A stretch of 64,000 nucleotides of DNA from an uncultured Thermoleophilia bacterium (GTDB lineage Bacteria > Actinomycetota > Thermoleophilia > UBA2241), in assembly GCA_963702475.1 (NCBI GenBank), contig CAVPCT010000002.1, positions 1 through 64,000 of the forward strand. The letters run 5' to 3'. Below are positions 19,860-46,934 of the stretch, one piece after another. The notes under the pieces are model-generated. The model saw only the letters and a list, made by a program, of their open reading frames with translations, had not been told where the DNA came from and ran no database searches. Positions within the stretch are counted from its first letter, which is position 1. Every line of letters starts with the position of its first letter. Made by a program: the position numbers and the translations under genes.

Positions 19860-21047
19860 TCAGACGCAGCGCGCCGCCATGGCGGCGAGCTCGTCCATGT
19901 GCTCCTCGATGAACTCCATGCAGCTCACCTGGCCGACGAAGTACCCCATGTACTCGTCCACGTCGGAGTCGGGCGAGCCGTAGAAGTACGTGACGTCCCA
20001 GTTGAGGATGTAGAGGTTGGCGTCGGCGATCATGCGCGGCAGCAGCGCCAGCTCCTCCGCGCCCATACGGCCGGGGTGCTCCCAGCGTGCCGCCTCGTCC
20101 TGATAGCCGCGCAGAAAGACCTCCGCCTTGTCGAGGCGCAGCGTGCCCTTGTCGGCGCCCTCCCAGGAGGTGCAGAAGTAGCAGATGCCCTGGGCGACGT
20201 CGAAGAGGCGGTAGTCCAGCTTCGCCCAGTCGAAGTCGAACAGCCCTACGCCCTGCTCGTCCACCCACTTGAGGTTGCCGGGGTGGTAGTCGCAGTGGGT
20301 CGCGCACGTCGGCATGCCCTCGATGCCGGCCTCGATCTGCGCGCCCTTCGCGACCACGTCGAGGATCTCCGGGAGCTTCTCGCGCAGATACCTGTCGCAG
20401 GCGGTGTCGCCGCCGCCGGCGATGAGCCTGGGCCAATCCTCCGCCCACGTGGGCACGAACTCCATGATGGGCGGCTGCACGCGCGCCAGGTCGCCGGGGT
20501 CGAAGCCGAAGCCGGCGTGGTGGTAGCGGGCGAGCACGCGGGCGCCGCTGTCGAACTCCTTGTCGGTCAGGCGGTTCTCGAGCCACGTGTACTTGTCCTC
20601 GCCGGTCAGCATGGTGAACACCGCGAAGAAGAACGTCGTGTCGGCGCCGTCCACGATCTCGTCACGCGTGACGAACGTGGAGCCGCTGCGCGTGGGGTAG
20701 ACGTGCGAGGCGAGGCCGAAGCCCTCGCGGTCGATGTGCGTGAGGAGCGCGTGCTCGAAGAGCACCTCGCGCTCCGTGATGGCCGGGTTGTACTTGCGCA
20801 CGAAGTACAGGTGCTCGCCGTCCTCCCGGCGCGTCCACACGGAGAAGCTGGCGTTGCAGTAGCCGCCGAAGATGCGTTCGACGCGCACGACCTCGCCCAG
20901 GTCCCAGTCGTCGTTCACCACGCCGGCGATCTGCGCCAGGAGCGCGGCCTCGCGCGCGTCGATCGTGCCGTCGCCGGCGCCGACAGGGCCGCAGGTCGCG
21001 CCCTCCGTCGTCGTGCCGTCGACACGGGTCTCATCGTTCGCGGTCAC
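19860..21047 (-). CDS. APH-fold phosphotransferase (homoserine kinase type II-like)
   Basis: 'FEHALL.H', Brenner-type motif 'HCDYHPGN', 'FDFDW'. Confidence 0.82.
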   Translation of the reverse strand: MTANDETRVDGTTTEGATCGPVGAGDGTIDAREAALLAQIAGVVNDDWDLGEVVRVERIFGGYCNASFSVWTRREDGEHLYFVRKYNPAITEREVLFEHALLTHIDREGFGLASHVYPTRSGSTFVTRDEIVDGADTTFFFAVFTMLTGEDKYTWLENRLTDKEFDSGARVLARYHHAGFGFDPGDLARVQPPIMEFVPTWAEDWPRLIAGGGDTACDRYLREKLPEILDVVAKGAQIEAGIEGMPTCATHCDYHPGNLKWVDEQGVGLFDFDWAKLDYRLFDVAQGICYFCTSWEGADKGTLRLDKAEVFLRGYQDEAARWEHPGRMGAEELALLPRMIADANLYILNWDVTYFYGSPDSDVDEYMGYFVGQVSCMEFIEEHMDELAAMAARCV

Positions 21048-21127
21048 TGCTGCCTCTCCTCATGTACGGGGTGGTCGGGCCGGGTCTCGCCGGCGCCGGT
21101 CTGCGCCGGGAGCCGCCCGGCCGGTCT

Positions 21128-21922
21128 TCACACGACGATGAGCTGCAGGCCAAGGAGCTCGATCTCCTCGCGCACGTCGCTGCTCACGCCGTCGTCCAGG
21201 ATCACCACGTGCGCCGTGTCGAGCGGGCAGATGACCACGTCGCCCACGGCGCCGACCTTGCTGTTGTCCGCCAGCACGACGATCTCTCCGCGCGTCTGGC
21301 GGATCATGGCCCGCTCCACGCCGGCCAGGCTCATGCTCGGCGTGGTCACGCCCTCGTCGAGGGAGAGGCCGTCGGCGCCGAGGATGAAGCGCGAGGCGTG
21401 GAACCCCTCCACCATCTGCACCGTGAGGGAGCCGGCGACGATGTTGGAGCGCGGCTTGTAGGAGCCGCCGAGCAGCACGATGTCGAGGCTGGTGTGCTGC
21501 GCAGCAGACACCGCGCCGACGTTGTGGGTCACCACCCGGGCGCGGAGCTCCGGGTCCACGTTGCTGAGCACCTGCACCGCTGTGGTGCCGGAGCTCAGGA
21601 ACACCGTCTCACCGGGCTGGATCATAGCCGCCGCGGCCTTCGCGATGCGCCGTTTCTCCTCCGGCTGCTCGCGCTCCTGGGCGACGTAGAACGGCTCCTC
21701 CACCATGCGTCGCTTGAGGATGGCGCCGCCGTGCATGCGCGAGAGCATGCCCTCCTGCTCGAGACGCTCCAGGTCGCGGCGGATCGTCATCTCGGAGACG
21801 CCGAGCTCCTCGCTGAGCATCGAGACGCGCACGGAGCGCCGCTGCTCAAGCGACTCGACGATGCGGGCGCGGCGCTCGGCGGGGATCATCTCGTGTGCTT
21901 CGGGCGCTCCGTCAGACGGCAT
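21128..21922 (-). CDS. DeoR/GlpR-family transcriptional regulator (1 of 3)
   Basis: 'ERRARI', HTH 'LGVSEMTIRRDL', 'HGGA', 'EKRRIA', 'LADNSKVG'. Confidence 0.92.
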   Translation of the reverse strand: MPSDGAPEAHEMIPAERRARIVESLEQRRSVRVSMLSEELGVSEMTIRRDLERLEQEGMLSRMHGGAILKRRMVEEPFYVAQEREQPEEKRRIAKAAAAMIQPGETVFLSSGTTAVQVLSNVDPELRARVVTHNVGAVSAAQHTSLDIVLLGGSYKPRSNIVAGSLTVQMVEGFHASRFILGADGLSLDEGVTTPSMSLAGVERAMIRQTRGEIVVLADNSKVGAVGDVVICPLDTAHVVILDDGVSSDVREEIELLGLQLIVV

Positions 21923-21980
21923 CGCAAAGCCTCCCGCACCGGTCGCTCATGATTCGACAAGACCGAACAAGTCCGCACAC

Positions 21981-22110: not shown

Positions 22111-23742
22111 TCACTCCGGCGGCACCTCGAGGAAGGCGTAGCCGACGTCGATGCCCTTGCTCTTGTTGTAGGCGGCGCCGATGAAGTACCAGACGACGCA
22201 GATGACGAAGATGCCGCCGACGACGATGTACGGCGTCGTGCCCTTGAGGCCGTAGCCGGCCTGGGTGAGGAACGCGATCAAGGCGGCACACCCGAAGACG
22301 AAGCCGATGATGCCGAACACGGTCACCAGCGGGAACCCGCCGATGGTGTACTTCGCCCCCGGGGAGGCCTCATACAAGGCCTTGGCCCGGAACGGCAGCA
22401 GCGCCGCCGCGAGGCAGCTGATCGTGAAGACGTAGCCGCACGCGAGAGTCACGCCCAAGGTCAAGGTGACCCACTGTCCCCAGTAGCTGTAGCCGATGAT
22501 CACGGGGATGCTGAAGGCGAAGTAGACCCAGTGGGCGACCGCGGGCGAGCGGAAGCGCGGGCTGATCTTGGAGACGACCGACGGCAACGTGCGGTCGAGC
22601 GACATGCCGACCATGATGCGCGTCATGCCGATGTAGCAGTTGCAGGTGATCTGCAGTGACGCGAGGATGAAGCTGACCGCCACGAGGATCGTGATGATCG
22701 GATTGGGCCAGATCACGATCGCGAGCACGCCGGGGAAGGGGCGCACGCTTCCGGCGCCTTCCCCGGAGGCGCTCACCAGGTAGTAGTACGAGTGCGACAC
22801 GGCGTTGAAGAAGGCCGTGCCCACCGCCCTCTCCTGGCTCCAGGCGATGAGGGCGAGCACGAGACCCACGGCGACCATCGAGCCGACGATGATGAAGGCC
22901 TGGTTCTTGAACACGCGGGCGCCCTTGATCTCGCCGCCCTGCTGCACGCTGTAGGTGGCCCACTGAAGGCTCGTCCAGACGATCGGCGCGGCCAGCAGTG
23001 TGGCGCCGAGCGCGAACTTGGGCAGCAGGTTGATGCCGGCGTCGGCGACGTCCTTCTGGACCCAGTTGTAGTAGTCGGTGCGGCCGTCGACCACGTTGGA
23101 GAAGTGGTTCATGGCCGTCGCGAACTCCGCCGGCGTGGTGCGCAGGAACTGCACGATCAGGATGACGACGAGGATGCCGGTGGCCGCGAACATGAAGTAC
23201 TGCAGGCGCACGTAGTTCTTGAAGCCGGTCACCAGCAGGAGGGCGATCGCCGCGGCACCGACGATGCTGGTCACGACGACGCCCTGCGCCGACTGCACCC
23301 AGATGGCGGCGTCGATGAGGCCGGTGTTCTCGTAGTACACGCCGAGGCCCATGAAGAGCGGCGCCAGGCCGAGGCAGGCGAGAAGCCAGCCGGCGAGCGC
23401 GACCCACTGCAGGATCCAGATCACGAAGCCGCTCATCACGATCGGGAAGCCGATGGCGCCGCCGAGCACGCGGCTCTGGAACACGTAGTCGCCGCCGCTG
23501 CGTGGCATGGCGGTCGCCATCCATATGTAGGCGAGGGCGATGGGGAGCTCGAGCAGGATCGCGAAGAGGCACGCCATCCACACGGAGACGCCGGGGAACG
23601 CCGCCGGCGCCCAGATGAACGTCCACGGGAAGATGACGCCCATGGTGAGGAAGTTGTACATGAACGCCGACCAGGGCGACATCACCCTGGACAGCCCCGA
23701 TGCCTTCCTGCTGAAGACCTCAGGTCTTGCCGCTGTTGCCAT
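22111..23742 (-). CDS. APC-family permease
   Basis: 'FSRKASGLSR', 'AMPRSGGDYVFQSR', multiple TM segments, C-terminal 'EVPPE'. Confidence 0.87.
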   Translation of the reverse strand: MATAARPEVFSRKASGLSRVMSPWSAFMYNFLTMGVIFPWTFIWAPAAFPGVSVWMACLFAILLELPIALAYIWMATAMPRSGGDYVFQSRVLGGAIGFPIVMSGFVIWILQWVALAGWLLACLGLAPLFMGLGVYYENTGLIDAAIWVQSAQGVVVTSIVGAAAIALLLVTGFKNYVRLQYFMFAATGILVVILIVQFLRTTPAEFATAMNHFSNVVDGRTDYYNWVQKDVADAGINLLPKFALGATLLAAPIVWTSLQWATYSVQQGGEIKGARVFKNQAFIIVGSMVAVGLVLALIAWSQERAVGTAFFNAVSHSYYYLVSASGEGAGSVRPFPGVLAIVIWPNPIITILVAVSFILASLQITCNCYIGMTRIMVGMSLDRTLPSVVSKISPRFRSPAVAHWVYFAFSIPVIIGYSYWGQWVTLTLGVTLACGYVFTISCLAAALLPFRAKALYEASPGAKYTIGGFPLVTVFGIIGFVFGCAALIAFLTQAGYGLKGTTPYIVVGGIFVICVVWYFIGAAYNKSKGIDVGYAFLEVPPE

Positions 23743-23802: not shown

Positions 23803-24807
23803 TCACCCCGACGTCATCTGGTAGCCGATCACCTTGCCCGGCTCCAGGGTGAAGATGCATCCCCTCAGGATGCCCTCGCCGTACTCGCTGCCGGGGTTGA
23901 TCACGGTGGTGCGGCCCAGCTTGACGAGGCCGCGCGACTCGTGGATGTGCCCCGTGAGCTGCAGGAGCGGCTGGTACTTCTCGACGACCTTGCGCACGGC
24001 GGTGCTGCCGGCCGGCGCCGACTGCGGCACGCCGGCGATCACGACGGGCGACGGCGGGTCGGTGGACCAATCGAGCTTGGGGCAATCGTCGAGGGTGCAG
24101 TCGTAGGGCGGGACGTGGAAGTTGAAGATCGCGCTCTCAAAGTCCTCGATGCCCTCGACCGCCTTCTCCAGATGTTGTTCGAGCACCTCCTCCTCGACCT
24201 CCCGCGGGGTGTCCCACGGGGTCCGGTTGCTGTACCCGCAGTTGGCCATGGGGTACTTGTCGTCGACGTAGATGACCTTCTCCTCGCAGTTCACGACGTG
24301 CTCGCTCGCGATGTCGTCGAGCACGGTGAGGACCTCGGGCGGGTCGTCGTTGCCGCCCGTGACGTACCACTTCACGGGCGTGCCGGACAGGCGCTCGTCG
24401 GCCATGGTGATCCAGCGCTCCAGCCGCTCGCGCCCCAACTGGCGGAAGCGGGCGTCGATGGCGCCCTCGTCCTCCTGCATGGCGTGGAGCTCGTCCTCCT
24501 CGAGGATCACGAAGTAGAAGCCGAGCGTCTCGATGCGCTCCTTGACGGCCGCGAGGGCGTCGCCGCCGTCGATGGCCTCGGTCGTGCCCTGCAGGGTCAC
24601 TCGATAGTGGTCGTTGTGCTCGTGGACGATGGGCACGAGGAACTTCCCCGTGATGTCGCCGCCCATGATGATGTGGTCGACCTTGTAGAACGCCGCCCCG
24701 TTGATGAACTTGCGGAACGTGCGCTCCGAGCCGTGGACGTCGGTGGCGTAGAACAGGCGGGTGCGCTTCTTGTCGCCTCCGCCATCCTTCTTCTTGAACA
24801 ATCCCAT
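23803..24807 (-). CDS. Calcineurin-like metallophosphoesterase (Icc-related)
   Basis: 'ATDVHGS', 'GGDITGK', 'GGNDD', 'HVPP', 'GHIHE', 'NPGSEY'. Confidence 0.87.
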   Translation of the reverse strand: MGLFKKKDGGGDKKRTRLFYATDVHGSERTFRKFINGAAFYKVDHIIMGGDITGKFLVPIVHEHNDHYRVTLQGTTEAIDGGDALAAVKERIETLGFYFVILEEDELHAMQEDEGAIDARFRQLGRERLERWITMADERLSGTPVKWYVTGGNDDPPEVLTVLDDIASEHVVNCEEKVIYVDDKYPMANCGYSNRTPWDTPREVEEEVLEQHLEKAVEGIEDFESAIFNFHVPPYDCTLDDCPKLDWSTDPPSPVVIAGVPQSAPAGSTAVRKVVEKYQPLLQLTGHIHESRGLVKLGRTTVINPGSEYGEGILRGCIFTLEPGKVIGYQMTSG

Positions 24808-24821
24808 GCTGCGGTCTCCTG

Positions 24822-25625
24822 TCAGTCGATCTCGCGGTACCACTTCACCTTGTCGCCCACCCTGGCACGAAGCTTCCACTTGGTGCCCTTGGGGAAGTCG
24901 TCGATGGCGGTGCGCAGCTCCGCGATGCGCCGCACGACGACCTCCTTGTCCTCCTCGGGAAGGTCCAGGTGAGGCAGGTAGTCGCGCGTCTTGTCCATGT
25001 TCATGGTCGTCGTGCGGTACAGGCCCCACTCGCCCGCGCACAGTCTGGCCACGTGGCTGGAGTTGATGCAGTCCTCGTCGCTGGCCGCGATCTCGTGCTC
25101 GCGCAGCAGCATGATGGTGTCGATGATGTCCTTCTCGTTGATCCTCACGATCTGCATCTTCTCGAGGAACAGTTCCGCGAGCGGGATGGTGACGTCGTCG
25201 ACCTCGAGGCGGTTCTTCCACGGGATGGGATGGCAGAAGTCGAGCCGGTCCATGAACACGTCGATGTGCAGGTGGGTCTCAGGATGGTTGAAGATGAGCC
25301 TGCCGCCCTCCGCGTGGAAGGCATTGATCTCCAGGTCCTCGTCGTAGCCGAGCGAGACGAAGAGCTCGCGGATCTGCTTGCTCTGCTTGCCGTAGCCGGC
25401 GAAGTCGATGTCGGTGTACACGCGGTTCAGCTGCGCCTGGATGTAGCCGAACTGCGGGCAGTGGTGATGGAAGGCGAGAGCGCCGATCACGCGAAGGGTG
25501 ACGCCCGCGGCGCCGCCGGCCTCGACGATCCTGACGGCCTCGTCCTCGAACCGCCTGGCCATGTCGGGGTCCACGGTGCCCATGCCGACTTCTTCATCGA
25601 TGGGCTGGAGCTCTTCGTCGGTCAT
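24822..25625 (-). CDS. Nucleotidyltransferase-fold (Pol-beta superfamily) protein of unknown function
   Basis: 'RVIGALAF' followed by 'YTDIDF' (DxD), 'IDVF', 'LEKMQI', 'KDIID'. Confidence 0.65.
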   Translation of the reverse strand: MTDEELQPIDEEVGMGTVDPDMARRFEDEAVRIVEAGGAAGVTLRVIGALAFHHHCPQFGYIQAQLNRVYTDIDFAGYGKQSKQIRELFVSLGYDEDLEINAFHAEGGRLIFNHPETHLHIDVFMDRLDFCHPIPWKNRLEVDDVTIPLAELFLEKMQIVRINEKDIIDTIMLLREHEIAASDEDCINSSHVARLCAGEWGLYRTTTMNMDKTRDYLPHLDLPEEDKEVVVRRIAELRTAIDDFPKGTKWKLRARVGDKVKWYREID

Positions 25626-25674: not shown

Positions 25675-26469
25675 TCACGCGATCTCGCAGCGGGGTCCGG
25701 CCCGCTGGATCCTGACCTGCATGTCGGGGGAGAGCCCGTCGTCCGCGAGCACGACGTCGATCTGGTCGAGCGGGCAGACGACGACCTGGTGCACGAGGCC
25801 GATCTTGTTGCTGTCCGCGAGCACGACGACCTCGCCGCGCGTGCGGCGGATCATGGCGAGCTCGATGCCGGCCACGGCCATGCTGGGGGTCGTGAGACCT
25901 GCGGTGGCGTCGAGGCCGTCGGCGCCCAGAAACGCCTTGTCGGCGTGAAAGCTGCCGATCATGTCGACGGTCCAGGTGCCCTCGACCGCCTGGATGCCGG
26001 GCCGGTACAGGCCGCCGAGGAAGATGATCTCGAGACTCGGGTCCCTGGCCTCCGCGGCGGCTGCCAGGCTGTGGGTGACGATGCGCGCCTCCAGGGCCGG
26101 GTCCACGTAGCGGACCACGGCTGCGACGGTGGAGCCCGAGCCCAGGAACACCGTGTCCCTGGGCTCGATCATGGCCGCCGCGGCTCGGGCGATGCGGACC
26201 TTCTCCTCGGTGAGCGCTTCGGCCGCGGCGGTCGCCTCGAACTGCGGCTCGGCGGAGGGCCGACGCTTCAGCACCGCGCCACCGTGGGTGCGCCGCAGCA
26301 CGCCCTCGCGGTCGAGCAGCTTGAGGTCGCGGCGGATGGTGATCTCGGAGACGCCGAGCACGTCGCTGAGTGTGGAGACCTTGACGACGCGCTGCTGTTC
26401 GAGCGCCTCGACGATGCGTGCGCGGCGCTCGGCAGGCAACATCTCGGGCGCGTCAGGCACGGTCACCAA
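25675..26469 (-). CDS. DeoR/GlpR-family transcriptional regulator (2 of 3)
   Basis: 'ERRARI', 'LGVSEITIRRDL', 'THGGA', 'LADSNKIG'. Confidence 0.92.
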   Translation of the reverse strand: MVTVPDAPEMLPAERRARIVEALEQQRVVKVSTLSDVLGVSEITIRRDLKLLDREGVLRRTHGGAVLKRRPSAEPQFEATAAAEALTEEKVRIARAAAAMIEPRDTVFLGSGSTVAAVVRYVDPALEARIVTHSLAAAAEARDPSLEIIFLGGLYRPGIQAVEGTWTVDMIGSFHADKAFLGADGLDATAGLTTPSMAVAGIELAMIRRTRGEVVVLADSNKIGLVHQVVVCPLDQIDVVLADDGLSPDMQVRIQRAGPRCEIA

Positions 26470-26539
26470 GCGATCCTCGCAGTCAGTCCCCTGGCGGTCG
26501 AACGGTCATCATCGTGCAGAACCGTTCATGAATGGTCAC

Positions 26540-26751: not shown

Positions 26752-28758
26752 TCAGGCCAGCGCCTTGGCGCGCGCGTACACGTTGTCCGCGGTGAAGCCC
26801 CACTCCTTGAAGATGGTGCCGGCCGGGGCCGACGTGCCGAAGTGGTCGATGCCCAGCACCTGACCGCCGTCGCCGACCCAGCGGTCCCAGCCGAAGGTCA
26901 CACCGGCCTCGACGGCCAGGCGGGCGCTGCAGGCCGGCGGCAGCACGCTCTCGCGGTAGTCGGCGTTCTGCTGCTCGAAGAGGCGCATGGACGCCATGTT
27001 GACGACGCGCGACTTGACGCCGTCGGCCATGAGGCGCTCGTGGGCCTCGAGGGCCAGAGCCACCTCGCTGCCGCTGGCGATGATGATCACGTCGGGCACG
27101 TGGCCGGGGACGGCATCGGCCAGCACGTAGGCGCCCTTGGCGATGCCGTCGGCCGCCGCGTACTTCTCGCGGTCGATGGTCGGCAGGTTCTGCCGCGTGA
27201 GCATGAGGCCCACCGGTGCGTCGGTGGTCTGCATGGCGATCCTCCAGGCCTCCACCGTCTCGTTGGCGTCGGCCGGGCGGATGTCGAGGAAGCCCGGCGT
27301 GGCGCGCAGCATCGCGAGGTGCTCGATCGGCTGGTGCGTGGGGCCGTCCTCGCCGACGCCGACACTGTCGTGCGTGAGCACGTAGATCACCGGCTGCTTC
27401 ATGAGGGCCGAGAGGCGCATGGCCGGCCGCATGTAGTCGACGAACACGAAGAACGTGGCCACGTACGGCCGGATGCCGCCGTGCGTGGAGAGGCCGTTGG
27501 CCATCGCCGCCATGCCGAGCTCGCGCACGCCCCAGCGCACGTTGCGCCCGGCCGGCGTCGCCGCCTGCTGGTCGTCGGAGCCGGCGATCAGGGTGTTGTT
27601 GGAGGGCGCCAGGTCGGCAGAGCCGCCCATGAGGTTCGGGACGTGCGGCGCCAGGGCGTTGATGACCTTGCCCGAGGCGGCGCGGGTCGCGATCTTGTCG
27701 TCGGTGGTGAAGACGGGCAGATCGGTGTCCCAACCGGCGGGCAGCGACCCGGACCAGGCGTCGTCCCACGACTGCGCGCGGGCGGCGTCGGCCGCGCGCC
27801 ACGCCTCGTACTTCTTCGTCCACTCGGCGTGCGCCTCAGCGGCCTTGGCGGCCGCGGCGAGGAACGCCTCGCGCACATCGTCCGGCACAGTGAACTCCGG
27901 CTCGAGCGGCCAGGCGCAGGCCTCCTTGGTCAACTTGACCTCGTCGGCACCGAGCGGAGCGCCGTGCGCCGCCGCCTTGTCCTGCTTGTTGGGCGAGCCG
28001 CAGCCGATGTGGGTGCGCACGGCGATGAACGACGGCTTGCCCGTCTCGGCCTTGGCCGCGGCCAGGGCCGCGTCGATGGCCTCGACGTCGTTGCCGTCGG
28101 CCACGCGCTGCACGTGCCACCCGTAGGCGGCGAAGCGGGCGACCACGTCCTCGGTGAAGGCGAGGTCGGTCGAGCCGTCGATGGTGATGTGGTTGTCGTC
28201 GTAGATGAGGATCAGCTTGCCGAGCTTCTGGTGACCGGCGAAGGAGGCGGCCTCGCTGCTGATGCCCTCCATCATGCAGCCGTCACCGGCGAGCACGTAG
28301 GTGAAGTGGTCCACCACTTCGTCGCCGAAACCGGCGGCGAGGAAGCGCTCGGCCACGGCCATGCCCACGCCGTTGGCGACGCCCTGGCCGAGTGGGCCGG
28401 TGGTGGTCTCCACGCCGGGCGTGTGCCCGAACTCGGGGTGACCCGGCGTGCGGCTGCCCCACTGCCGGAAGGCCTTGAGGTCGTCCATGGTGACGTCGTA
28501 GCCGGTCAGGTGCAGCATGGAGTAGAGCAGCATGCTGGCGTGCCCGGCGGAGAGCACGAAGCGGTCGCGGTCCGGCCATGCCGGGTCGGCCGGGTCGTAG
28601 CGCAGGTGGCGCGTGAAGAGCGTGTAGGCGACGGCGGCCGCGCCCATGGGCATGCCGGGGTGGCCGGAGTTGGCCTTCTGGACGCCGTCGACGGCGAGGA
28701 AGCGGATCGTCTCGATGCAGCGCTGCTGCAGCTCCGCCTCGCTTGCGACTGTGCTCAT
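26752..28758 (-). CDS. tkt: Transketolase (canonical)
   Basis: 'SGHPGMPMG', '[12 protein letters not shown]', 'TPGHPE', 'GDGCMMEG', 'GSADLAPSN', 'GEDGPTHQP'. Confidence 0.95.
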
Positions 28759-28860
28759 CTGGGTCCTTTCGTCTGGGCTACAGGGCCGTCAGCCTCCGCC
28801 CTCCCGCCGGGGGCGGGAGAACGGAGGCTGAGGCCGGTCGTCATACAGCCTTGAGTCGGC

Positions 28861-31196: not shown

Positions 31197-31280
31197 GCTT
31201 CCCCCTAGACGGTGAGGTTCCTGATGACTGACGTCCCCGGGATCGGGGGGCGCCTGATGCTCGAGTGCGGCTGCACCGGG

Positions 31281-36690: not shown

Positions 36691-36771
36691 GTGTGCGAGT
36701 GCAAAAGTAGCACGTTCGCGAACGTTATCAAACACACTCGCACTTGACGTCACGCGTGTCGTGCCTATGAT
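36691..36771. promoter_or_regulatory. Divergent promoter with nested inverted repeats
   Basis: Plus strand TTGACG-N16-TATGAT (36744-36771). Palindrome ACGTTCGCGAACGT (36712-36725) sits inside GTGCGAGTG...CACTCGCAC (36693-36743). Confidence 0.65.
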
Positions 36772-39976: not shown

Positions 39977-41377
39977 ATGAAGGTCCTCACCAGAATGGGC
40001 GACAGCTCCAACGTCGAGCTGACGATGGACGAGCTTCGCCAGGAGTTCATCGCCGGCTCCGAGCTCGCCGCCACGAAGGCCAAGATCCCGGCGCTCACCG
40101 AGAACGAGATCGACTTCCTGGTCGACATGTTCGCGGCGCCGACGCGTATCTGGGGCGTGCAGCGCGGCCACGAGGTCGTCATGACCAAGGATGGCTGCGT
40201 CAACGCCCTCAACTCCTCGCGCATGTCGAGCGGCGTCACCGCGCCGGTCAACCGCGAGGTGGGCGTGCGCCTCTTCGAGTCGATGCTCGGCTTCGACTCC
40301 ATGGAGGTGGCGCACAACGACTACTCCGTGAAGCCGCAGCGCTTCCTCAAGGCGCTGGAGCAGCTCCACATGGAGATCCTCCAGGAAGTCACCATCTTCC
40401 CGCTGTTCTACGGCTTCATGCCCAACCTGGGCCTGTACTACCGGCCCGACGGCTCGTTCGAGAACCCGTCGGACCTCATGCCGATCGGCAAGATCCCGGA
40501 GGCGCGCCGCACGCAGGAAGAAGCGCTCGAGAAGTGCATGGAAGACTGCATCGAGATGAGCGACTGCATGCTCGAGATGGGCGCCGACGGCATCGACTAC
40601 GACACCACCGCGTCCACCGGTGACGCCGAGTTCCTGGCCGTGCTCAAGACCACCGAGCACGTGGCCGGCGAGACGGGCCTCCCCGTCGAGGTCGGCATGT
40701 CGGCCGAGATGGTGCTGGGCTTCCACGGCCAGCTCGAGTACAACGGCAAGCGCCTCGCCGGCATGTGGCCGCACCAGCAGCTGCAGGTGTGCGAAGAGGC
40801 CGGCGTGGCGATCTTCGGCCCGGTCTGCAACACCAACACCAAGAAGACCGTGCCGTGGAACCTGGGTCGCGCCCTCACCTTCGTCAAGGCGTGCACCGAC
40901 ATCGCCAAGATCCCGGTGCACCCCAACGTGGGCATGGGCGTGGGCGGCGTGCCGATGTTCGAGACCCCGGCCGTGGACGTCGTGACGCGCTGCAGCGCGG
41001 CCATGATCGAGATCGGGCACGCCGACGGGTTGTAGGTCGGTACGGGTGACCCGGCCGGCATGCACATGGCGCATCTGCTGGCCTCGTCGATGGGCGGTAT
41101 CCGCGCAGCCGGAGATCTGGTTGCCCGCATGCAGCTCCAGAAGATGAGGATCGACGACGCCAAGAAGTACGTGGCCGACAAGCTCCACGTGACGCCGCTC
41201 GACCTGTCCGATCCCACCGTCATGCGAGCTCTCAGGGAAGAGCTCGACATCGGTGTGGTCACGGGCGTCCCCGGCATCGCCAAGGGCATGGCCGCCAAGT
41301 GCCGTATCGCCGAGTTGCTCGACATCAAGATCAACTCGGTGGAGCAGTTCAAGAAGAAGACCGGTCTGCACCTCTGA
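39977..41377 (+). CDS. mtbB: Dimethylamine:corrinoid methyltransferase MtbB family, 466 aa, with an in-frame amber codon (predicted pyrrolysine at codon 353)
   Basis: ORFs 39977-41035 and 41060-41377 are in one frame and separated only by TAG 41033-41035. The joined protein reads 'TRMGD...HNDYSVKP...MPNLGLY...FGPVCNTN...[13 protein letters not shown]...ADGL-(TAG)-VGTGDPAGM...[12 protein letters not shown]...LREELDIG...KINSV', matching the MtbB 'DG.(O).G.GDP' site. Confidence 0.92.
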
Positions 41378-41513: not shown

Positions 41514-42452
41514 TCAGACGGCCCTGAGCCACTCCTCGTAGTCCGGATGGGCGGCGTTGCGCTCCATGCGGTGGATGCGGTCCATGCCGTACTGGAAGAA
41601 GTCGAAGTCGAGCTTGCTGAGCGTGGCCTGGATCATCGCCCAGATGCTCCACCACAGGTCGGCGACCAGCTTGTGCAGCATCATGCGCGCGTAACGGTGC
41701 TCGTCCCAGCCGCCGCAGTACTGCTCGAGGACGGCCTTCTCTTCGGCCTCGGTGAGCGGCGTCTCCACGCAGAAGTCACCGAGGTCGAAGTACGGGTCGG
41801 TCATGCCGCCGTACTCCCAGTCGATGACCCACATCTTGCCATCGAGGGCGAGGATGAAGTTCTCGCTGAGCAGGTCGTTGTGGCAGGCGGTGAAGGCCGG
41901 CGCGTCACGCTTCATGGCCTCCTCGATGCGCGCGCCCTGTTCCAGCATCCAGTCGGTCTCCGCAGGGCGCGGCGCGCTCACGTCCTCGGCCATGCGCAGG
42001 TACTCGCGGATCATGTCGAACACGCGGATCTCGTTGGTGAAGACGGCCCTGTCGTGGTAGGTGCGCATGGCCGCGACGATCTTCTGGAGACGGTCGGCGT
42101 GTCCGGCGATGGATTCCGGGTGCATGGTCTCGCCCTCGATGAAGGGCACCACGGTGCAGTCGCCGGGCTGGAGGACGTGCAGGAGCGGCGGCGTGACGCC
42201 GGCCGCCGCCGCGGCGCGGTGGTTGCTGAGCTCGCGCGCGCGGTCGATGAACGTGTCGGTGCCCTCGCCGGGGATGCGCACGACGTACTTGCCGGCGCCG
42301 GGCGTTCCCGGCTCGCCGAGTACCGTGACCACGTAGTTGCGGTTGGTGATGCCGCCGCCGAGCTCCTGGCAGAGGACGTCCTTGTCCTGCCACTCCTCGA
42401 TGCGGGCGATGACCTCCTCGACGCTGATGGGCGCGCTGGCGGAGTCTGTCAT
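41514..42452 (-). CDS. Choline/ethanolamine kinase family protein
   Basis: 'ELGGGITNRNY', 'VVRIPG', 'CHNDLLSEN', 'IDWEYGG', 'FDLG'. Confidence 0.87.
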   Translation of the reverse strand: MTDSASAPISVEEVIARIEEWQDKDVLCQELGGGITNRNYVVTVLGEPGTPGAGKYVVRIPGEGTDTFIDRARELSNHRAAAAAGVTPPLLHVLQPGDCTVVPFIEGETMHPESIAGHADRLQKIVAAMRTYHDRAVFTNEIRVFDMIREYLRMAEDVSAPRPAETDWMLEQGARIEEAMKRDAPAFTACHNDLLSENFILALDGKMWVIDWEYGGMTDPYFDLGDFCVETPLTEAEEKAVLEQYCGGWDEHRYARMMLHKLVADLWWSIWAMIQATLSKLDFDFFQYGMDRIHRMERNAAHPDYEEWLRAV

Positions 42453-42558
42453 GGTGGTGCCTCGCTGCAGGTAGGGGTCTGGAACGGCGAACGGCCGGGG
42501 CCCTCGCGCTCTGGGGAGCATACCTGCGAGGGCCCCGGCCGTTTCAGGGGGGCTCGGA

Positions 42559-43941
42559 TCAGAGGGCCGGGACCTCGAGGCCCATCTTGGCGAGGTCGGC
42601 GCGCACGTCCTCCATCGCCTTCTGGTACTCGCTGTTCACGATCGCTTTGGTCTTCGCGTCGTAGACCTCCTGGAAGGTCATGCCCTTGTCCGGGTCCTTC
42701 AGCTTGTCCCCGAACAGCGGGAAGAGCTTCTGGGCGATGGGCTCGGCCTCGGCGCGCGTGAGCTTGGCGGCCGCGAGGCCCATCTCGGCGTGGAACTTGT
42801 GGTCGTCCGGCACCAGGGAGTCGGTCTGGACGGCCATGGCCGGGTGGCCGGAGAACACGTTGCCGCCTGAGGTGACGATGGCGAGCAGGTAACAGGCCAT
42901 CTCGTAGTGGTACTGCTTGGTGCCCGAGCCGCCGCCCAGGTACGGCAGGTTGACCATGGGGTAGCCCATGTTGCGGCCGATTGCGGCGTTGCTCATGGCG
43001 ATGGCCCAGATGAGCGGCTTGGTGGACGAGAGGTGCAGCTTGCTGTGCAGCGGCGCGTTGTAGTGGTAGGTGCCGCGGAAGACCAGGTTGCCCATGATCA
43101 TGTAGGCGGTGGCGGTGACGGCCACGCCCTCCGCGCCGCCGGCGTAGCCGCCGAAGAGCGGGGTGGAGGTGGAGCCGATATTGGCGCTGATGCTGTTGTA
43201 GAAGGCGACCTTCTGCAGAGCCTCGTAGCCCACCACCATCTCGCTGAGGAAGTCGATGAGGAAGCCGTCGCTCGGCCGCAGGCCGAACTCAGGGTAGGTG
43301 GCGGCGAACATGCTGGCCGGCTGGGAGGCCGCGGAGATGCCGTTGATGATCGGCAGGCCGGCGCGACCGGAGCGACGGATGCCCTCACGCGCGAGGCGCA
43401 CGGTCTTGCAGGCCGCGAGGATCTCCTGCGGCGAGCGCACGCGCGCGTCCTTGCCGCGCAGGTGCAGGATCGACGGCACGGACACCGAGTCGACGATGGA
43501 GAAGGACGCCATCTTCTCGACGGTGTCCATGTACACCTGCTCGTCGCTGGTGTAGATGCCGCCGCCCACGTGCACCCACGGGCGGTCGTCGGTCGTGTCG
43601 GGCCTGCGCCCGTACATGGTCTTGCGCTCGCGCCCCTCGCCGAAGGTCGCGCCCCTGGGGGCCTGCGAGCAGGCCAGCAGGATCTCTTCCGTGGTGAACT
43701 GCATCACGCGGTTGGTCTCAGGGCAGTAGGCGCCGGCCTCTGCGATGAGGTCCACGGCGGCCTCGAACACGTGGTCGGTGAGGGCGTCGTCGGTGTTGAT
43801 GATGGTCTGTTTGTCCCATTTCACGCCGTGCCGCGCGATGACCTCGCTCAGCTTGGGCACGTAGCGCTTCATGTAGTAGTCCATCTCGGACGTGAGCGGA
43901 CCGGTCTCCGCGCGGTCGAACACCTCGATAAGGTCGATCAT
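42559..43941 (-). CDS. Monomethylamine methyltransferase MtmB-family homolog, non-pyrrolysine
   Basis: 'DRAETGP', 'DDALTDHVFEAA', 'YCPETNRV', 'GEGRE', 'SGRAGLP', 'PLFGGYAGGAEG', 'GMTFQEVYD'. Uninterrupted 460-aa ORF. Confidence 0.82.
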   Translation of the reverse strand: MIDLIEVFDRAETGPLTSEMDYYMKRYVPKLSEVIARHGVKWDKQTIINTDDALTDHVFEAAVDLIAEAGAYCPETNRVMQFTTEEILLACSQAPRGATFGEGRERKTMYGRRPDTTDDRPWVHVGGGIYTSDEQVYMDTVEKMASFSIVDSVSVPSILHLRGKDARVRSPQEILAACKTVRLAREGIRRSGRAGLPIINGISAASQPASMFAATYPEFGLRPSDGFLIDFLSEMVVGYEALQKVAFYNSISANIGSTSTPLFGGYAGGAEGVAVTATAYMIMGNLVFRGTYHYNAPLHSKLHLSSTKPLIWAIAMSNAAIGRNMGYPMVNLPYLGGGSGTKQYHYEMACYLLAIVTSGGNVFSGHPAMAVQTDSLVPDDHKFHAEMGLAAAKLTRAEAEPIAQKLFPLFGDKLKDPDKGMTFQEVYDAKTKAIVNSEYQKAMEDVRADLAKMGLEVPAL

Positions 43942-43990: not shown

Positions 43991-44638
43991 TCACACGAGC
44001 TCGCCGGCGATGCGCACGGCGTCGTAGGCGTTGGCCGCCCAGCCGTCGGCGCCGATGCTGTCGGCCCACTCCTGGGTGGTGGCGCCGCCACCGACCATGA
44101 CCTTGAACTTGTCGCGCGTACCCTGGTCCTTGAGGGCGTCGATCACGTCGCGCTGGCCGATGAGTGTGGTGGTGAGGAGCGCCGACATGGCGATGACGTC
44201 CGCGTGCACCTCGTTGGCCTTGTCGACGAACTTGAACAGGTCGACGTCGATGCCCAGGTCGTGCACCTCGTACCCCGAGGTCTCGAAGAGCAGCTTGAGG
44301 ATGTTCTTGCCGATGGAGTGCAGGTCGCCCTTGACGGTGCCCATCACGACGGTGCCCTTCTTGGGGCCCGCGCCGCCGGCCTCCTTGATGAGCGGCTCGA
44401 GCACGCCCATGGCCGCCTGGAAGGCGAGGGCCGCCTGCATGAGCTCGGGCAGGAAGATGTCCTCACACTCGAACTGCTCGCCGATGACGTTGAGGCCCGG
44501 CAGCAGGCCCTTGTCGATGACTTCCTGGGCGCTCATGCCATCGGCGAGGGCCTTGTCCACGGCGGCCAGGACGGCTTCTTCGTCCTGGTCGATGATCGCC
44601 TGCTTGAGCTGGTCGTACATGGCCTCGTTTCCCATCAC
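43991..44638 (-). CDS. Methyltransferase cognate corrinoid protein
   Basis: 'IFLPELM', 'GTVKGDLHSIGKN', 'SALLTTT', 'VMVGGG'. Confidence 0.93.
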   Translation of the reverse strand: MMGNEAMYDQLKQAIIDQDEEAVLAAVDKALADGMSAQEVIDKGLLPGLNVIGEQFECEDIFLPELMQAALAFQAAMGVLEPLIKEAGGAGPKKGTVVMGTVKGDLHSIGKNILKLLFETSGYEVHDLGIDVDLFKFVDKANEVHADVIAMSALLTTTLIGQRDVIDALKDQGTRDKFKVMVGGGATTQEWADSIGADGWAANAYDAVRIAGELV

Positions 44639-44666: not shown

Positions 44667-46109
44667 TCAGTCTTCGTTCCAGACGGCGTCGCCGGCCACG
44701 ATGCCGGGGAACTCCGCGCGGATGCGGGCGTCCAGGTCCTCGTCCCACGCGGACTGGTTGGGCTGCGTGAGGATGCCTCGGGCCACTGCGCGCGCCTTGC
44801 TCTGGGCGTCCGGCCTGCCGGCCCCCTCCCACTGGGCGCGCATGTCGCGGTTCGCCACCTTGGGGAAGAGGGCCGTCGTCTTCATGAGCGACTTCGTGTG
44901 GCGGCTCTTCATGTAGTCGCCACCGGGGCCGACGTCGGCGATGACGTCGAGCGCCAGGTTCTCCTCGCTGTACTCCAGCCCGCGCACGACGCGTTTGTTC
45001 ATCTGCGCGATCTCGTCGTCCACCACGGCCTTGCCGAAGTCGAACGCCATGAGCGAGCTGAACAGGCCGCCCATGTTGAGCAGGGTCGCGCCGGCGAGCA
45101 CCGAGGCAAGGGTGTTCATGCCGGTCTCGTAGCCCGACTGCGCGTCGTTGCTGTGGGCGTTGGTCAGGCCGATATAGCCGCCGGTGGGGACGTTGTAGAA
45201 GCGCCCGAGCTGGGCCTGGGCCATGAAGAGCATGCCGGTCTCGATGGCGCCGGGCGCGTAGGCGCCGGTGCGCATGTCGGCCACTGTGGGCAGGCTCGCG
45301 TAGATGAGCGGCGTGCCCTCCCTGACCATCTGCTGGAACACTGAGATCGCGAGGAACTCCGCGTTGCCGACGACCAGTGTGCCCATGAGCGTCATGGGTG
45401 AGGTGAGGCCGGCGTTGGGGACCACCGTGGTGTACACGGGCAGGCCCTCGCCGGTGAGGTACATCACCGCTTCGGTCGAGTCGACGTCCATGGTGAGCGG
45501 GCTGACCATGGGGCAGTAGTGGTGGTTGATGATCGGCCGCTCGTAGTAGGCCTCCTTGCCGCCGGCGATGAGCTCGCCCAGCGTGAGCACCATGTGGAGG
45601 TCGTCCATGTTGGGCGTGTTGCTGCGCACGGGCTTGAGGCAGTTCTTCAGCGCCGGGTAGAAGCGGCTGAGGCTGAACTGGCCGGGAGGCGCGTCGTCGG
45701 CGAGCGTGGAGATGGAGAAGATGTCGAAGCCCTTGAGCTCGTTGATGAGGTGGGCGATGTTGGCGATGTCGGTGGAGGTGGCGCGGCGCTCGACGCCGGT
45801 GACCGGGTCGACGACGTTGGGCGCCGAGCTGCCGGTGACGACCACGGGGCCACCGTCCGGGATGGTGCGGTCGAACTGTGGGTCGCGCCCGCGGAACGTG
45901 AAGCGCGGCGGGCACAGGCGCATGTAGCGGTCGACCACCTCGGGCGGGAAGGTGACGATGCCCTCGTCCGAGACGGCGCAGCCGTGCGTCTTGAAGACCT
46001 CGCGGGCCTTGGGGTGATGCGCGAGGATACCCACGTTCTCGAGCACCCAGAGGGACGCCTCGTGGACGCGCGCCACCTGCTCTGCGCTGAGCAACTCTGC
46101 GTACTTCAT
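44667..46109 (-). CDS. MttB-superfamily methyltransferase, non-pyrrolysine
   Basis: 'VHEASLWVLENVG', 'SPL', 'GLTSPMTL', 'DMRTGAYAPGAIE', 'DAQSGYE', 'VGPGG.Y'. No TAG. Confidence 0.9.
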   Translation of the reverse strand: MKYAELLSAEQVARVHEASLWVLENVGILAHHPKAREVFKTHGCAVSDEGIVTFPPEVVDRYMRLCPPRFTFRGRDPQFDRTIPDGGPVVVTGSSAPNVVDPVTGVERRATSTDIANIAHLINELKGFDIFSISTLADDAPPGQFSLSRFYPALKNCLKPVRSNTPNMDDLHMVLTLGELIAGGKEAYYERPIINHHYCPMVSPLTMDVDSTEAVMYLTGEGLPVYTTVVPNAGLTSPMTLMGTLVVGNAEFLAISVFQQMVREGTPLIYASLPTVADMRTGAYAPGAIETGMLFMAQAQLGRFYNVPTGGYIGLTNAHSNDAQSGYETGMNTLASVLAGATLLNMGGLFSSLMAFDFGKAVVDDEIAQMNKRVVRGLEYSEENLALDVIADVGPGGDYMKSRHTKSLMKTTALFPKVANRDMRAQWEGAGRPDAQSKARAVARGILTQPNQSAWDEDLDARIRAEFPGIVAGDAVWNED

Positions 46110-46151
46110 GTGGACCAGACCCTCCCCTTGCGAGTGATCAGATAGAGACGC

Positions 46152-46934
46152 TCACGCGGACACCACGCGGAGCCCGCGGCGGAGCATCTCGTCGCGCACG
46201 TCGTCGTCGACGTCGTCGACGACGACGGTCTGGACGTCGCTGAGGCCGCAGATGACGAAGTCGCCGACTGCTCCCAGCTTGCTGCGGTCGGCGAGGACGA
46301 CGACCTCACCGCGCGTCTGGCGGATCATGGCGCGCTCCACGCCGGCGATGCCGATGCTGGCGGTGGTGACGCCCTCCTCGAGGCTGAGGCCGTCGGCGCC
46401 CAGGATGAAGCGGGACGCGTGCAGGGTGGAGACGGCCTCGATGGCCATGGGGCCCTCGAGGGTATTGCTGCGCGGCCTGAAGATGCCGCCCAGCATGATG
46501 ACGTCCAGGGACGAGTCCTGGGCGGTGGTGAGGGCGCCCACGTTGCCGGTCACGATGCGCGCGCTGGTCTGCGGGTCGACATGCGCGAGCACCTGCGCGG
46601 CCGTCGTGCCGGAGCCCAGAAAGACGGTCTCACCCGGGGCGATCATGGTGGCGGCGGCACGCGCGATGCGGTCCTTCTCGAGCGTGTGCGTGCGCACGTT
46701 GGTCACGTAGCGCGGCTCCTCCACGATGTGCTGGCGCAGGATAGCGCCGCCGTGGGTGCGCGAGAGCTGGCCGTCGTTCTCCAGCCTCTCGAGGTCGCGG
46801 CGGATGGTCATCTCCGAGACGCCGAGCAGCTCGCTCAGGGCAGAGACACGTACGCCGCGCTGCTCGGCGAGTATCTCCAGGATCCGGCCCTGTCGCTCGG
46901 CCGGGAACATCTCTCGCATGTCGGGCGCCGACAC
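46152..46934 (-). CDS. DeoR/GlpR-family transcriptional regulator (3 of 3)
   Basis: 'ERQGRI', 'LGVSEMTIRRDL', 'THGGA', 'LADRSKLG'. Start uncertain (46919, 46934 or 46955). Confidence 0.92.
   Translation of the reverse strand: MSAPDMREMFPAERQGRILEILAEQRGVRVSALSELLGVSEMTIRRDLERLENDGQLSRTHGGAILRQHIVEEPRYVTNVRTHTLEKDRIARAAATMIAPGETVFLGSGTTAAQVLAHVDPQTSARIVTGNVGALTTAQDSSLDVIMLGGIFRPRSNTLEGPMAIEAVSTLHASRFILGADGLSLEEGVTTASIGIAGVERAMIRQTRGEVVVLADRSKLGAVGDFVICGLSDVQTVVVDDVDDDVRDEMLRRGLRVVSA

Follow-up and report, generated by a model that had tools for sequence, protein, structure and literature searches.

The stretch of DNA analyzed here (the window, 64,000 nucleotides) makes up the opening 64 kb of contig CAVPCT010000002.1 (414 kb) in GCA_963702475.1, a metagenome-assembled genome (MAG) of an uncultured Thermoleophilia bacterium. 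It carries a gene island in which homologues of corrinoid-dependent methylamine methyltransferases lie together with kinases, an aminotransferase, and transaldolase- and transketolase-like enzymes. The genome is 4.3 Mb in size with 70% GC, and the MAG is 93.8% complete with 6.5% contamination. Thermoleophilia MAGs recovered from soil, peat, and sediment are closely related to it, and the host is a soil or sediment Thermoleophilia actinobacterium. Genes were called by third-position GC, and the proteins were scanned against Pfam, NCBIfam, and the ESM Atlas. The island consists of 20 contiguous genes (positions 19860 to 46955), and the calling and scans confirmed their number and kinds as given in a preliminary description of this DNA; the families stood, but that description had noted neither the in-frame TAG of mtbB nor the fact that g07 is the only canonical transketolase found in the genome. 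Below, G000 is the host genome, C3, C5, and C9 are its contigs, and L numbers are loci in relatives. The genes are as follows.

19860-21047, minus strand: g01, APH-fold kinase, 395 amino acids (Pfam APH, E = 1.8e-19)
21128-21922, minus strand: g02, DeoR regulator 1 (HTH_DeoR and DeoRC domains)
22111-23742, minus strand: g03, divergent APC permease, APC1 (AA_permease_2, E = 6e-10)
23803-24807, minus strand: g04, metallophosphoesterase, paralogue of g13 (start from alignment to the L010 orthologue, 80% identity)
24822-25625, minus strand: g05, nucleotidyltransferase-like protein, 267 amino acids (Atlas neighbours)
25675-26469, minus strand: g06, DeoR regulator 2 (Pfam domains)
26752-28758, minus strand: g07, canonical transketolase (Transketolase_N, 488 bits)
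28861-29943, minus strand: g08, HisC/CobD-family pyridoxal phosphate (PLP) aminotransferase, AT (Aminotran_1_2, E = 1.5e-51)
29994-31202, minus strand: g09, divergent transaldolase-like (TAL-like) protein, 402 amino acids from the conserved start (TAL_FSA, E = 5.7e-29)
31509-33107, minus strand: g10, APC permease of the amino-acid/choline transporter type, APC2 (AA_permease_2, E = 1.6e-59)
33321-35738, minus strand: g11, divergent transketolase-like (TK-like) thiamine diphosphate enzyme (weak Transketolase_N and Transket_pyr matches)
35998-36630, minus strand: g12, corrinoid protein 1 (B12-binding and B12-binding_2; start and ribosome-binding site read)
36998-37945, plus strand: g13, metallophosphoesterase (Metallophos_3, E = 7e-7; start read)
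38020-39771, plus strand: g14, divergent APC permease, APC3 (AA_permease_2, E = 6e-13)
39977-41377, plus strand: g15, MtbB-family methyltransferase with an in-frame TAG at 41033-41035 (TIGR02368)
41514-42521, minus strand: g16, choline/ethanolamine-kinase-family (ChoK) kinase (Choline_kinase, E = 6.5e-32)
42559-43941, minus strand: g17, non-pyrrolysine (non-Pyl) MtmB homologue, 460 amino acids from the conserved start (Pfam MtmB, E = 3.3e-65)
43991-44638, minus strand: g18, corrinoid protein 2, partner of g17 (B12-binding domains)
44667-46109, minus strand: g19, non-Pyl MttB-superfamily methyltransferase (Pfam MTTB, E = 2e-84)
46152-46955, minus strand: g20, DeoR regulator 3 (Pfam domains)

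The starts of g09 (31202) and g17 (43941) were set by comparison with orthologues, and the coordinates of g11 are those of the maximal open reading frame (ORF), the true start of which is probably near 35680 to 35705. The metallophosphoesterases g04 and g13 are ~38% identical, and the three DeoR regulators are mutually 52% to 67% identical. No match to g05 was obtained in the Pfam and NCBIfam scans; its Atlas neighbours are "nucleotidyltransferase family" clusters (score, 0.98), in one of which PF14907 occurs in 19% of the members. The best NCBIfam match of g10 is TIGR00907 (2A0304), with 383 bits, below the cut-off, and the subfamily nearest to APC2 is that of amino-acid/choline transporters. 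Elsewhere in the host genome (C3:616113-619595), genes for an APC permease, a metallophosphoesterase (44% identity to g04), and a nucleotidyltransferase-like protein (34% identity to g05) form a paralogous triad.

Relatives of the island were collected with two of its proteins as queries. With the TAL-like protein, 188 relatives were found; the best 80 of them were retained, and 50 Actinomycetota loci were counted. The MtmB-like protein gave 62 counted loci. A second-phylum set held 53 unique Desulfobacterales, Syntrophales, and other loci around the TAL-like gene. In addition, the class was surveyed in 79 genomes of one family (f1) and 321 genomes of 11 other families.

Within Thermoleophilia, two conserved modules were recognized. 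The methyltransferase module contains genes for a DeoR regulator, an APH kinase, the non-Pyl MttB homologue, a corrinoid protein, the non-Pyl MtmB homologue, ChoK, a phosphoesterase, APC3, and a pyrrolysine-containing MtbB (Pyl-MtbB), and the core module contains APC2, TAL-like, AT, and transketolase (TK) genes. At the 50 Actinomycetota TAL-like loci, the AT was found in 47, the TK in 41, a kinase in 13, and one or more of the three methyltransferases in 17, of which 10 belong to the 28 loci that span at least 20 kb. The g18-type corrinoid gene (Cor2) adjoins the MtmB-like gene at 58 of the 62 MtmB-like loci, including three Desulfo-type loci; the other neighbours there were the MttB-like gene (47 loci), APH kinase (37), ChoK (36), phosphoesterase (32), APC3 (31), and MtbB (29). 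Many genomes carry a minimal locus (cydAB, APC2, TAL, AT, TK, DeoR, HDAC-like, TetR, and OTCase) with no kinase or methyltransferase. The flanks of this minimal locus are the same as those in the window, where both modules, the APC1/phosphoesterase/nucleotidyltransferase-like/DeoR unit, and the TK-like/corrinoid pair are inserted at the minimal-locus site. Orthologues of g11 adjoin the methyltransferase module in L107, L108, and L112.

The TAL-like gene is present in 54 of the 79 genomes of family f1 and in none of the 321 genomes of the other families. In the family, 51 genomes have both the TAL-like and the MtmB-like gene, 3 have only the former, 5 have only the latter, and 19 have neither; among those without either gene are seven small, nearly complete genomes from the same genus. 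Since these relatives are not independent of one another, such co-occurrence alone could be due to inheritance. When both marker genes are on one contig (25 genomes), they are 2 to 12 kb apart in 10 genomes, 17 to 34 kb apart in 13, and 150 to 171 kb apart in 2. In L038, a single co-directional operon runs through DeoR, APH kinase, MttB-like, corrinoid, MtmB-like, ChoK, APC2, TAL, AT, and TK genes, and L052 is similar. As a correction to the preliminary description, the modules of most relatives are neighbours at 17 to 34 kb and not one operon.

It could therefore be asked whether two unrelated systems merely lie side by side. One would harvest methyl groups from choline, tetramethylammonium, or dimethylamine and excrete the demethylated amine, as Eubacterium limosum does, and the core locus would serve some other amine or the usual pentose-phosphate metabolism. 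The wider spacings, with cydAB and other genes in between, would be expected from such an arrangement, and so would the three Desulfo-type loci, which carry MtmB-like and corrinoid genes alone. The choline pathway of E. limosum, as described in the excerpts of PMC12155760 used here, likewise stops at dimethylaminoethanol. The fused operons in L038 and L052, the at least four different adjacent arrangements of the modules found in Thermoleophilia, and the genome co-occurrence all argue in the other direction. We regard two separate systems as unlikely, although this is the most serious of the rival explanations.

The linkage in a second phylum bears on the same question. The TAL-like gene at the 53 loci is accompanied by the AT in 42, a GntR/UTRA regulator in 39, alanine dehydrogenase (Ald) in 25, a TK-like gene in 17, a ChoK-like or APH kinase in 12, a DAO-GcvT (DMGDH-like) demethylase in 12, ETF in 13, an aminoethylphosphonate-type (PhnS2-type) ABC system in 18, TRAP transporters in 8, and an MttB-family gene in 3; in Syntrophales loci the oxidative demethylases occur with ETF. 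The order in Desulfobacterales L220 is GntR, TAL, Ald, AT, MttB (with an in-frame TAG and a continuous Pfam match over 16 to 477), and TK-like, and on the divergent side there are homologues of g05, g03, g16, and g04. In L219 the order is GntR, APH kinase, MttB-like, TAL, Ald, Ald, AT, and DMGDH-like. PylS is encoded in all four genomes tested (L219, L220, L226, and L227). A homologue of g01 (39% identity) stands beside the MttB-like and TAL-like genes in L219, homologues of g03 (49%) and g04 (50%) were found in L220 and L227, the former beside the TAL/AT operon, and homologues of g16 (31% to 32%) stand beside TAL/AT in the deltaproteobacterial loci. In Desulfosarcinaceae L066, a canonical TK gene follows TAL-Ald-AT. 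The APC/phosphoesterase/nucleotidyltransferase-like triad recurs in L220 and L227, where, with a choline-kinase-like gene, it flanks the TAL/AT operon.

Recruitment of N-demethylation genes and amino-alcohol kinases beside the AT/TAL pair has therefore occurred repeatedly, with enzymes of differing types. This cross-phylum linkage is stronger evidence than linkage within one family. The preliminary description would have counted its interpretation as refuted if the sugar-type genes had no link to methyltransferases elsewhere; in two phyla these genes do stand with N-demethylation genes and kinases, and the interpretation is not refuted in this way. The independent adjacency of TAL/AT to MttB homologues, APH/ChoK kinases, a phosphoesterase, and a nucleotidyltransferase-like gene in Desulfobacterales, together with the DMGDH-like demethylases beside TAL/AT, also counts against two unrelated systems.

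The aminotransferase g08 scores 253.4 bits with TIGR01141 (HisC), for which the cut-off is 276.55, and 151 bits with TIGR01140 (threonine-phosphate decarboxylase). In alignment A2, K214, R335, and other PLP-site/HisC residues are kept, including the basic residues of the HisC phosphate site and the PLP lysine; K stands in place of R322, S in place of D85, and F in place of Y110. Asp85 and Tyr110 are presumably contacts of the imidazole ring in Escherichia coli HisC. As judged from these residues and scores, g08 is not a bona fide HisC. The adjoining alanine dehydrogenase suggests that it is a pyruvate-dependent amine transaminase. The TIGR01140 match would also suit a biosynthetic pathway to phosphocholine-like head groups or an amino sugar, with the AT as a CobD-like decarboxylase. 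That explanation is very improbable, given the permeases at every unit, the repressor-type regulators, the alanine dehydrogenase near the AT in 25 of the 53 loci, and the oxidative demethylases with ETF in Syntrophales.

The TAL-like protein g09 reaches at best 101 bits in NCBIfam (cut-off, 367) and 35 bits with TIGR00875 (FSA; cut-off, 246), far below every curated model. It shares the TAL_FSA fold with transaldolase B and FSA: its structure model (pLDDT, 85) has transaldolases 3r5e and 3clm as the best folds (Foldseek TM, 0.72 to 0.76). The Schiff-base lysine K132, D17, N35, T156, and the phosphate-binding residues R181, S226, and R228 (TalB numbering; alignment A1) are kept. E96 is replaced by Q in all six TAL-like sequences aligned, and F178 by M. 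The glutamine is FSA-like (FSA Gln59), whereas the methionine in place of Tyr131 is not, and g09 has N- and C-terminal extensions (402 amino acids in all, against ~220 for FSA). Accordingly, g09 is neither a standard transaldolase (EC 2.2.1.2) nor an FSA. The family is tight (63% to 89% identity), and relatives were found only in Thermoleophilia, Desulfobacterales, Syntrophales, and a few other MAGs. Three other TAL_FSA genes are present elsewhere in the host genome.

The two transketolases listed in the preliminary description turned out to be one canonical and one divergent enzyme. The three TK domains of g07 score 488, 187, and 131 bits, and the protein is 52% identical to E. coli TktA. No other full canonical transketolase was found in G000 by tblastn and PF00456 searches of the 93.8% complete genome, and g07 is probably a housekeeping enzyme rather than a dedicated one, which is also a point in favour of two separate systems. 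In g11 and the deltaproteobacterial TK-like proteins, the residues corresponding to TktA H26, H66, H100, H261, R358, E411, H461, D469, H473, and R520 are invariant (alignment A4), and the scores are far below the cut-offs (131 versus 488 and 217 versus 575). For the TK-like protein, a lyase function of the Xsc or phosphoketolase type, with glycolaldehyde phosphate as the substrate, was considered; it is not favoured, as the TK donor, acceptor, and phosphate residues are all kept. Between the AT and transketolase genes (window positions 28759 to 28860) lies a strong GC-rich hairpin, due to which the TK may be partly insulated from the DeoR-controlled TAL/AT transcript.

Taurine and aminoethylphosphonate pathways combine an aminotransferase with alanine dehydrogenase, turning a 2-aminoethyl-X into the X-acetaldehyde while alanine is recycled, and the sulfoquinovose transaldolase and transketolase routes use TAL/TK-type enzymes on short anionic aldehydes. 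The island scheme resembles both, but g08 belongs to the HisC family and not to aminotransferase class III or V, the kinases imply an O-phosphate, and no desulfonating or C-P-cleaving enzyme is present. The same logic and analogy lie behind an alternative in which the backbone is a 2-aminoethyl-phosphonate or -sulfonate (aminoethylphosphonate, taurine, or their N-methyl forms). The AT would then produce phosphono- or sulfoacetaldehyde for TAL-like and TK-like processing. The binding protein with TIGR03261 as its best match, such ABC systems at 18 of the 53 loci, the TRAP transporters, a TauE-family gene after the TK-like gene in L220, and a weak sequence match to the sulfofructose transaldolase (8bc3) are consistent with that alternative. 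However, the ChoK-family/APH kinases at 12 of the 53 loci and in the Thermoleophilia module would have no role with phosphonates or sulfonates. Genes for a phosphonatase, a C-P lyase, or an Xsc-type enzyme were not noticed next to the AT/TAL pair. Normal sugar phosphates would not be among the products, and an ABC protein of this type could equally bind phosphoethanolamine. A phosphonate or sulfonate backbone is accordingly considered quite unlikely.

On the demethylation side, the in-frame TAG of g15 sits at the canonical pyrrolysine site (motif GL-TAG-VGTGD). With the TAG read through, g15 scores 503.8 bits with TIGR02368 (cut-off, 369.1), and Pfam Dimeth_Pyl matches in two pieces (5 to 353 and 363 to 463). 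All of the 46 orthologues from 45 loci retain the TAG, which is followed by 113 to 121 in-frame codons except where one locus ends early. The host encodes PylB, PylC, PylD, PylSn, and PylSc, each above its model cut-off, and a tRNA-Pyl (CUA) at C3:641046-641118. The system is split: pylB, pylC, pylD, tRNA-Pyl, and pylSn lie together at C3:637885-642485, and pylSc is 15 kb away (C3:655728-658501), adjoining a second mtbB with an in-frame TAG. Seven full-length Pyl-MtbB genes were identified in the genome, all with the TAG, which in the six non-island copies (C9:308737, C3:655995, C5:372540, C5:358333, C5:336114, and C3:390278) occupies a DG[LF]-TAG-[VA]GxGD site; these paralogues are 42% to 59% identical to g15. 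Among 2,025 confidently called ORFs, 294 end with TAG, 1,671 with TGA, and 59 with TAA, showing that the amber codon is not avoided in this pyrrolysine-decoding host. A tRNA-Sec gene was also found (C3:167171-167268). One further candidate pyrrolysine gene, a pair of L107 ORFs joined by a TAG (17375 to 19354), proved to be the gene for Der and, after it, that for PlsY.

According to the excerpts of PMC10805028, pyrrolysine-containing mttB and mtbB are expressed by Actinobacteriota MAGs of a mire, so pyrrolysine use in this lineage is not new; an open-access literature search for pyrrolysine with Thermoleophilia returned nothing relevant. Like Methanosarcina MtbB (TIGR02368/PF09505), g15 is full length above the cut-off, has the UAG at the conserved site, and occurs with a complete host pyl system. 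In contrast to it, g15 is one of seven diverged paralogues, in a bacterium, and is always accompanied by phosphoesterase, permease, and choline-kinase-like genes. Its substrate may be an N-methyl-ethanolamine derivative.

The non-Pyl enzymes differ in this respect. In g19, the PF06253 match lies in one uninterrupted ORF, and the TIGR02369 score is 354 bits (cut-off, 525). The PF05369 match of g17 is a single stretch over profile positions 1 to 450 with no internal stop, and its orthologues are 460 amino acids long. Both proteins score under or fall outside the curated monomethylamine (MMA) and trimethylamine (TMA) models, and because they lack pyrrolysine, they are unlikely to be MMA or TMA enzymes. 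Ordinary methylotrophy on free TMA, dimethylamine (DMA), or MMA with unrelated neighbours is therefore improbable: in-frame TAG codons are absent from the MttB- and MtmB-like genes, the divergence of the seven Pyl-MtbB paralogues argues for diversified substrates, and kinases are conserved within the module. Such methylotrophy does draw support from MtbB, which exceeds the dimethylamine equivalog cut-off, and from the mire expression data (excerpts of PMC10805028).

The kinases give further context. The Choline_kinase match of g16 has 111.5 bits (cut-off, 29). The g01-type APH kinase gene is located immediately upstream of the MttB-like gene in L038, L052, L138, and L099; in the window, g01 is 24 kb from g19, next to DeoR regulator 1. 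In E. limosum, MthB acts as a demethylase on phosphocholine rather than on choline, and the gene of its partner kinase, MthK, is adjacent (PMC12155760, in the excerpts used). Section 10 of that paper ascribes the co-localization of kinase and MttB genes to Firmicutes and delta-proteobacteria, with no Actinomycetota named in that section. We consider g01 a candidate counterpart of the choline kinase MthK. As far as the excerpts describe it, the MthK/MthB/MthC/MthA system (phosphocholine:tetrahydrofolate [THF] methyl transfer) shares with the island a non-Pyl MttB, a corrinoid protein, and an APH-type kinase, and, as proposed here, the logic of phosphorylation followed by demethylation. The island differs in having no MthA-type gene and in having two more methyltransferase families, a second kinase, and the backbone module.

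A precedent for g17 is the non-Pyl MtmB homologue MtqB of Methanococcoides methylutens, which demethylates choline and tetramethylammonium (excerpts of PMC13044021). MtqB/MtqC and g17/g18 are alike in that a non-Pyl MtmB homologue is paired with its own corrinoid protein; the island system is bacterial, and g17 is found among kinases and a Pyl-MtbB gene. The likenesses of g19 to MthB, g01 to MthK, and g17 to MtqB are those of family and gene context. The choline-like phosphorylated substrate proposed in the preliminary description fits the action of MthK/MthB on phosphocholine and of MtqB on choline, as reported in the excerpts of PMC12155760 and PMC13044021.

Beyond the island copies, G000 contains at least 13 further MttB-like, 4 MtmB-like, and at least 13 corrinoid-protein genes, a methyltransferase complement that is unusually large for an actinobacterium. 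As for acceptors of the methyl groups, the genome-wide stock comprises 11 matches of the URO-D family, 3 of the pterin-binding type, and 4 to RACo, the last at 3 loci, and these proteins could accept methyl groups and reactivate corrinoids. Neither EutB nor phosphoketolase was found in the host genome search.

The shared promoter motifs noted in the preliminary description are real. Five TTGACA-N17/18-TAnnAT promoters were identified upstream of g20, g02, g06, g09, and g10, in addition to the divergent g12/g13 pair, and a GTTCGAAC-like palindrome is present at each of them; at the g02 promoter there is a GTTCG/CGAA operator-like site. The sites listed are candidate operators by position.

46975-46982, no strand assigned: candidate operator resembling GTTCGAAC, downstream of the g20 promoter
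33119-33126: similar operator-like site
31374-31381: similar operator-like site
26496-26503: similar operator-like site
36712-36725: similar operator-like site (ACGTTCGCGAACGT)

Over the whole window, GTTCGAAC with at most one mismatch is not enriched (16 sites versus 15.2 in shuffled sequences). Five of the 16 sites lie within ~1.2 kb of promoter DNA, and only this clustering at promoters is notable. TTCGAAC occurs 8 times against 3.7 expected, and 3 of 100 shuffles reach 8. The positions of the sites fit control by the three DeoR paralogues, and operator-like sites common to the units speak against two unrelated systems. Contigs from a set of three RNA libraries and one run presumed to be RNA matched the AT, TAL, TK, phosphoesterase, MtbB, MtmB-like, and MttB-like genes in pieces of 200 to 530 nucleotides with 88% to 100% identity; with no silent control stretch, the set is uninformative on transcription and co-regulation.

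Taken together, these observations lead us to propose that the island brings together, in one supercluster, the catabolism of N-methylated 2-aminoethyl compounds of the choline type (choline itself, dimethyl- and monomethyl-ethanolamine, and the phosphate esters of these), a general scheme whose prospects we consider evenly balanced. The amine would be imported by the APC permeases and phosphorylated by g16 and g01. The quaternary amine would then be demethylated by the MthB-like g19 and the MtqB-like g17 with the corrinoid proteins g18 and g12, and the secondary or tertiary amine by g15, the methyl groups passing to methyl-corrinoid acceptors and activases whose genes lie at other sites of the genome. 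What is left, a primary amine that is most likely phosphoethanolamine, would be transaminated by g08 to glycolaldehyde 2-phosphate, which g09 would couple to the dihydroxyacetone unit of a ketose phosphate, yielding xylulose 5-phosphate or a similar product. This product would be moved into the pentose-phosphate pool by g07 and, in some lineages, by g11. The three DeoR paralogues, acting at the GTTCGAAC-like operators, would coordinate the units, presumably by sensing a phosphorylated intermediate. The order of phosphorylation and demethylation, the product of transamination, and the reaction of g09 are predictions. The specific route from phosphoethanolamine through glycolaldehyde phosphate to a pentulose phosphate is more doubtful than the general scheme, and we offer it tentatively. 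Serinol, homoserine-betaine, carnitine-derived, and amino-sugar substrates were weighed on gene content only and dropped, as they either need no specialized TAL or clash with the choline-kinase/aminoethyl-transporter context.

Several points weigh against the proposed supercluster. All catalytic steps are predictions, and the close relatives identified are all uncultured. Within the island, no methyl-corrinoid:THF/coenzyme M methyltransferase or activase was identified. The replacement of the catalytic Glu96 by Gln and of Phe178 by Met makes the reaction type of g09 uncertain, and the presence of g07, the sole transketolase of the genome, may reflect housekeeping. Being above the curated dimethylamine-methyltransferase cut-off, g15 could simply use free dimethylamine. 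The core locus of most relatives (APC2, TAL, AT, TK, and DeoR) has no kinase or methyltransferase within 10 kb, and the linkage could therefore partly be inherited synteny within one family. In Syntrophales, the ABC binding protein is nearest to the aminoethylphosphonate type (TIGR03261, 332 bits; cut-off, 393), and this, the TRAP transporters at 8 of the 53 loci, and the one TauE gene in L220 point to phosphonate or sulfonate analogues. Finally, reductase-like, glycerate-kinase, and GcvT-SHMT genes in two lineages (L028 and L107) fall outside the scheme. In one Actinomycetota sub-lineage, a 949-amino-acid GcvT-SHMT fusion is encoded after the MtmB-like gene (L107:12033-14882), and glyoxylate/hydroxypyruvate-reductase-like and DUF4147-MOFRL (glycerate-kinase-type) genes stand beside TAL or APC2/ChoK (L028:7299-9858 and L107:2973-5478). 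These genes hint at a serine- or glycerate-type branch.

Part of the supercluster scheme is already known. Phosphocholine demethylation by a kinase and an MttB-family enzyme and choline demethylation by a non-Pyl MtmB are described in the excerpts of PMC12155760 and PMC13044021, respectively. The new part would be full demethylation to 2-aminoethyl phosphate followed by transamination and transaldolase/transketolase chemistry. The "undescribed" pathway of the preliminary description is accordingly new in its backbone part, but a kinase paired with an MttB-family demethylase had already been described in 2025. Overall, that interpretation is partly supported and, judging from the excerpts of the 2025-26 papers, partly anticipated. 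In our open-access literature search, no paper was found on a phosphoethanolamine transaminase or glycolaldehyde phosphate in such a route, or on pyrrolysine or corrinoid enzymes acting on methylethanolamines.

Some further features of the window and of the compared genomes were recorded. A tmRNA gene (window positions 50362 to 50721; tag peptide AEDNSFALAA) lies just past cydAB, and a second, overlapping ARAGORN call (50627 to 51049) looks spurious. At 13763 to 17550, genes for an amino-acid-kinase-family protein, an APC permease, and an ornithine/aspartate carbamoyltransferase adjoin TetR and HDAC-like genes; this unit could be of the arginine- or agmatine-deiminase type, and the same flank is kept in relatives. 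A 200-base probe from L189 or L194 recurs exactly in the other locus, and the two MAGs are labelled Promethearchaeota and Gammaproteobacteria, probably because of a binning error in at least one of them. L106 is labelled Deltaproteobacteria, and its MtmB-like match is 85% identical to the Thermoleophilia gene in the window.

Choline and its partly methylated relatives are major sources of methyl groups and nitrogen in peat, soils, and sediments and are precursors of trimethylamine and methane. It is possible, although we would sooner expect otherwise, that Thermoleophilia and several sulfate-reducing and syntrophic Deltaproteobacteria mineralize choline fully without trimethylamine or acetaldehyde. 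All three methyl groups would then be removed from phosphorylated intermediates in corrinoid-dependent reactions, a pyrrolysine-containing MtbB/MttB-type enzyme would act on N-methyl-ethanolamine phosphates rather than on free methylamines, and a new phosphoethanolamine aminotransferase and a new transaldolase-family enzyme would lead to a pentulose phosphate. The conserved AT/TAL-like pair, which is found time and again coupled to demethylases and kinases, offers a good starting point for finding a new pathway, and since the gene set is compact and conserved, each step is directly testable with recombinant proteins. If the proposal is true, the phosphoethanolamine transaminase and the glycolaldehyde-phosphate transaldolase-type enzyme would be two new activities making up a new route of ethanolamine assimilation, a carbon-conserving entry of C2 amines into the pentose-phosphate pathway that is independent of B12 lyases. 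The substrates of pyrrolysine methyltransferases would reach beyond free methylamines, and the non-Pyl MtmB/MttB homologues of Actinomycetota would acquire a function. Abundant uncultured Thermoleophilia and Desulfobacterales/Syntrophales would then constitute an unrecognized sink, consuming choline-type compounds without the release of methylamines.

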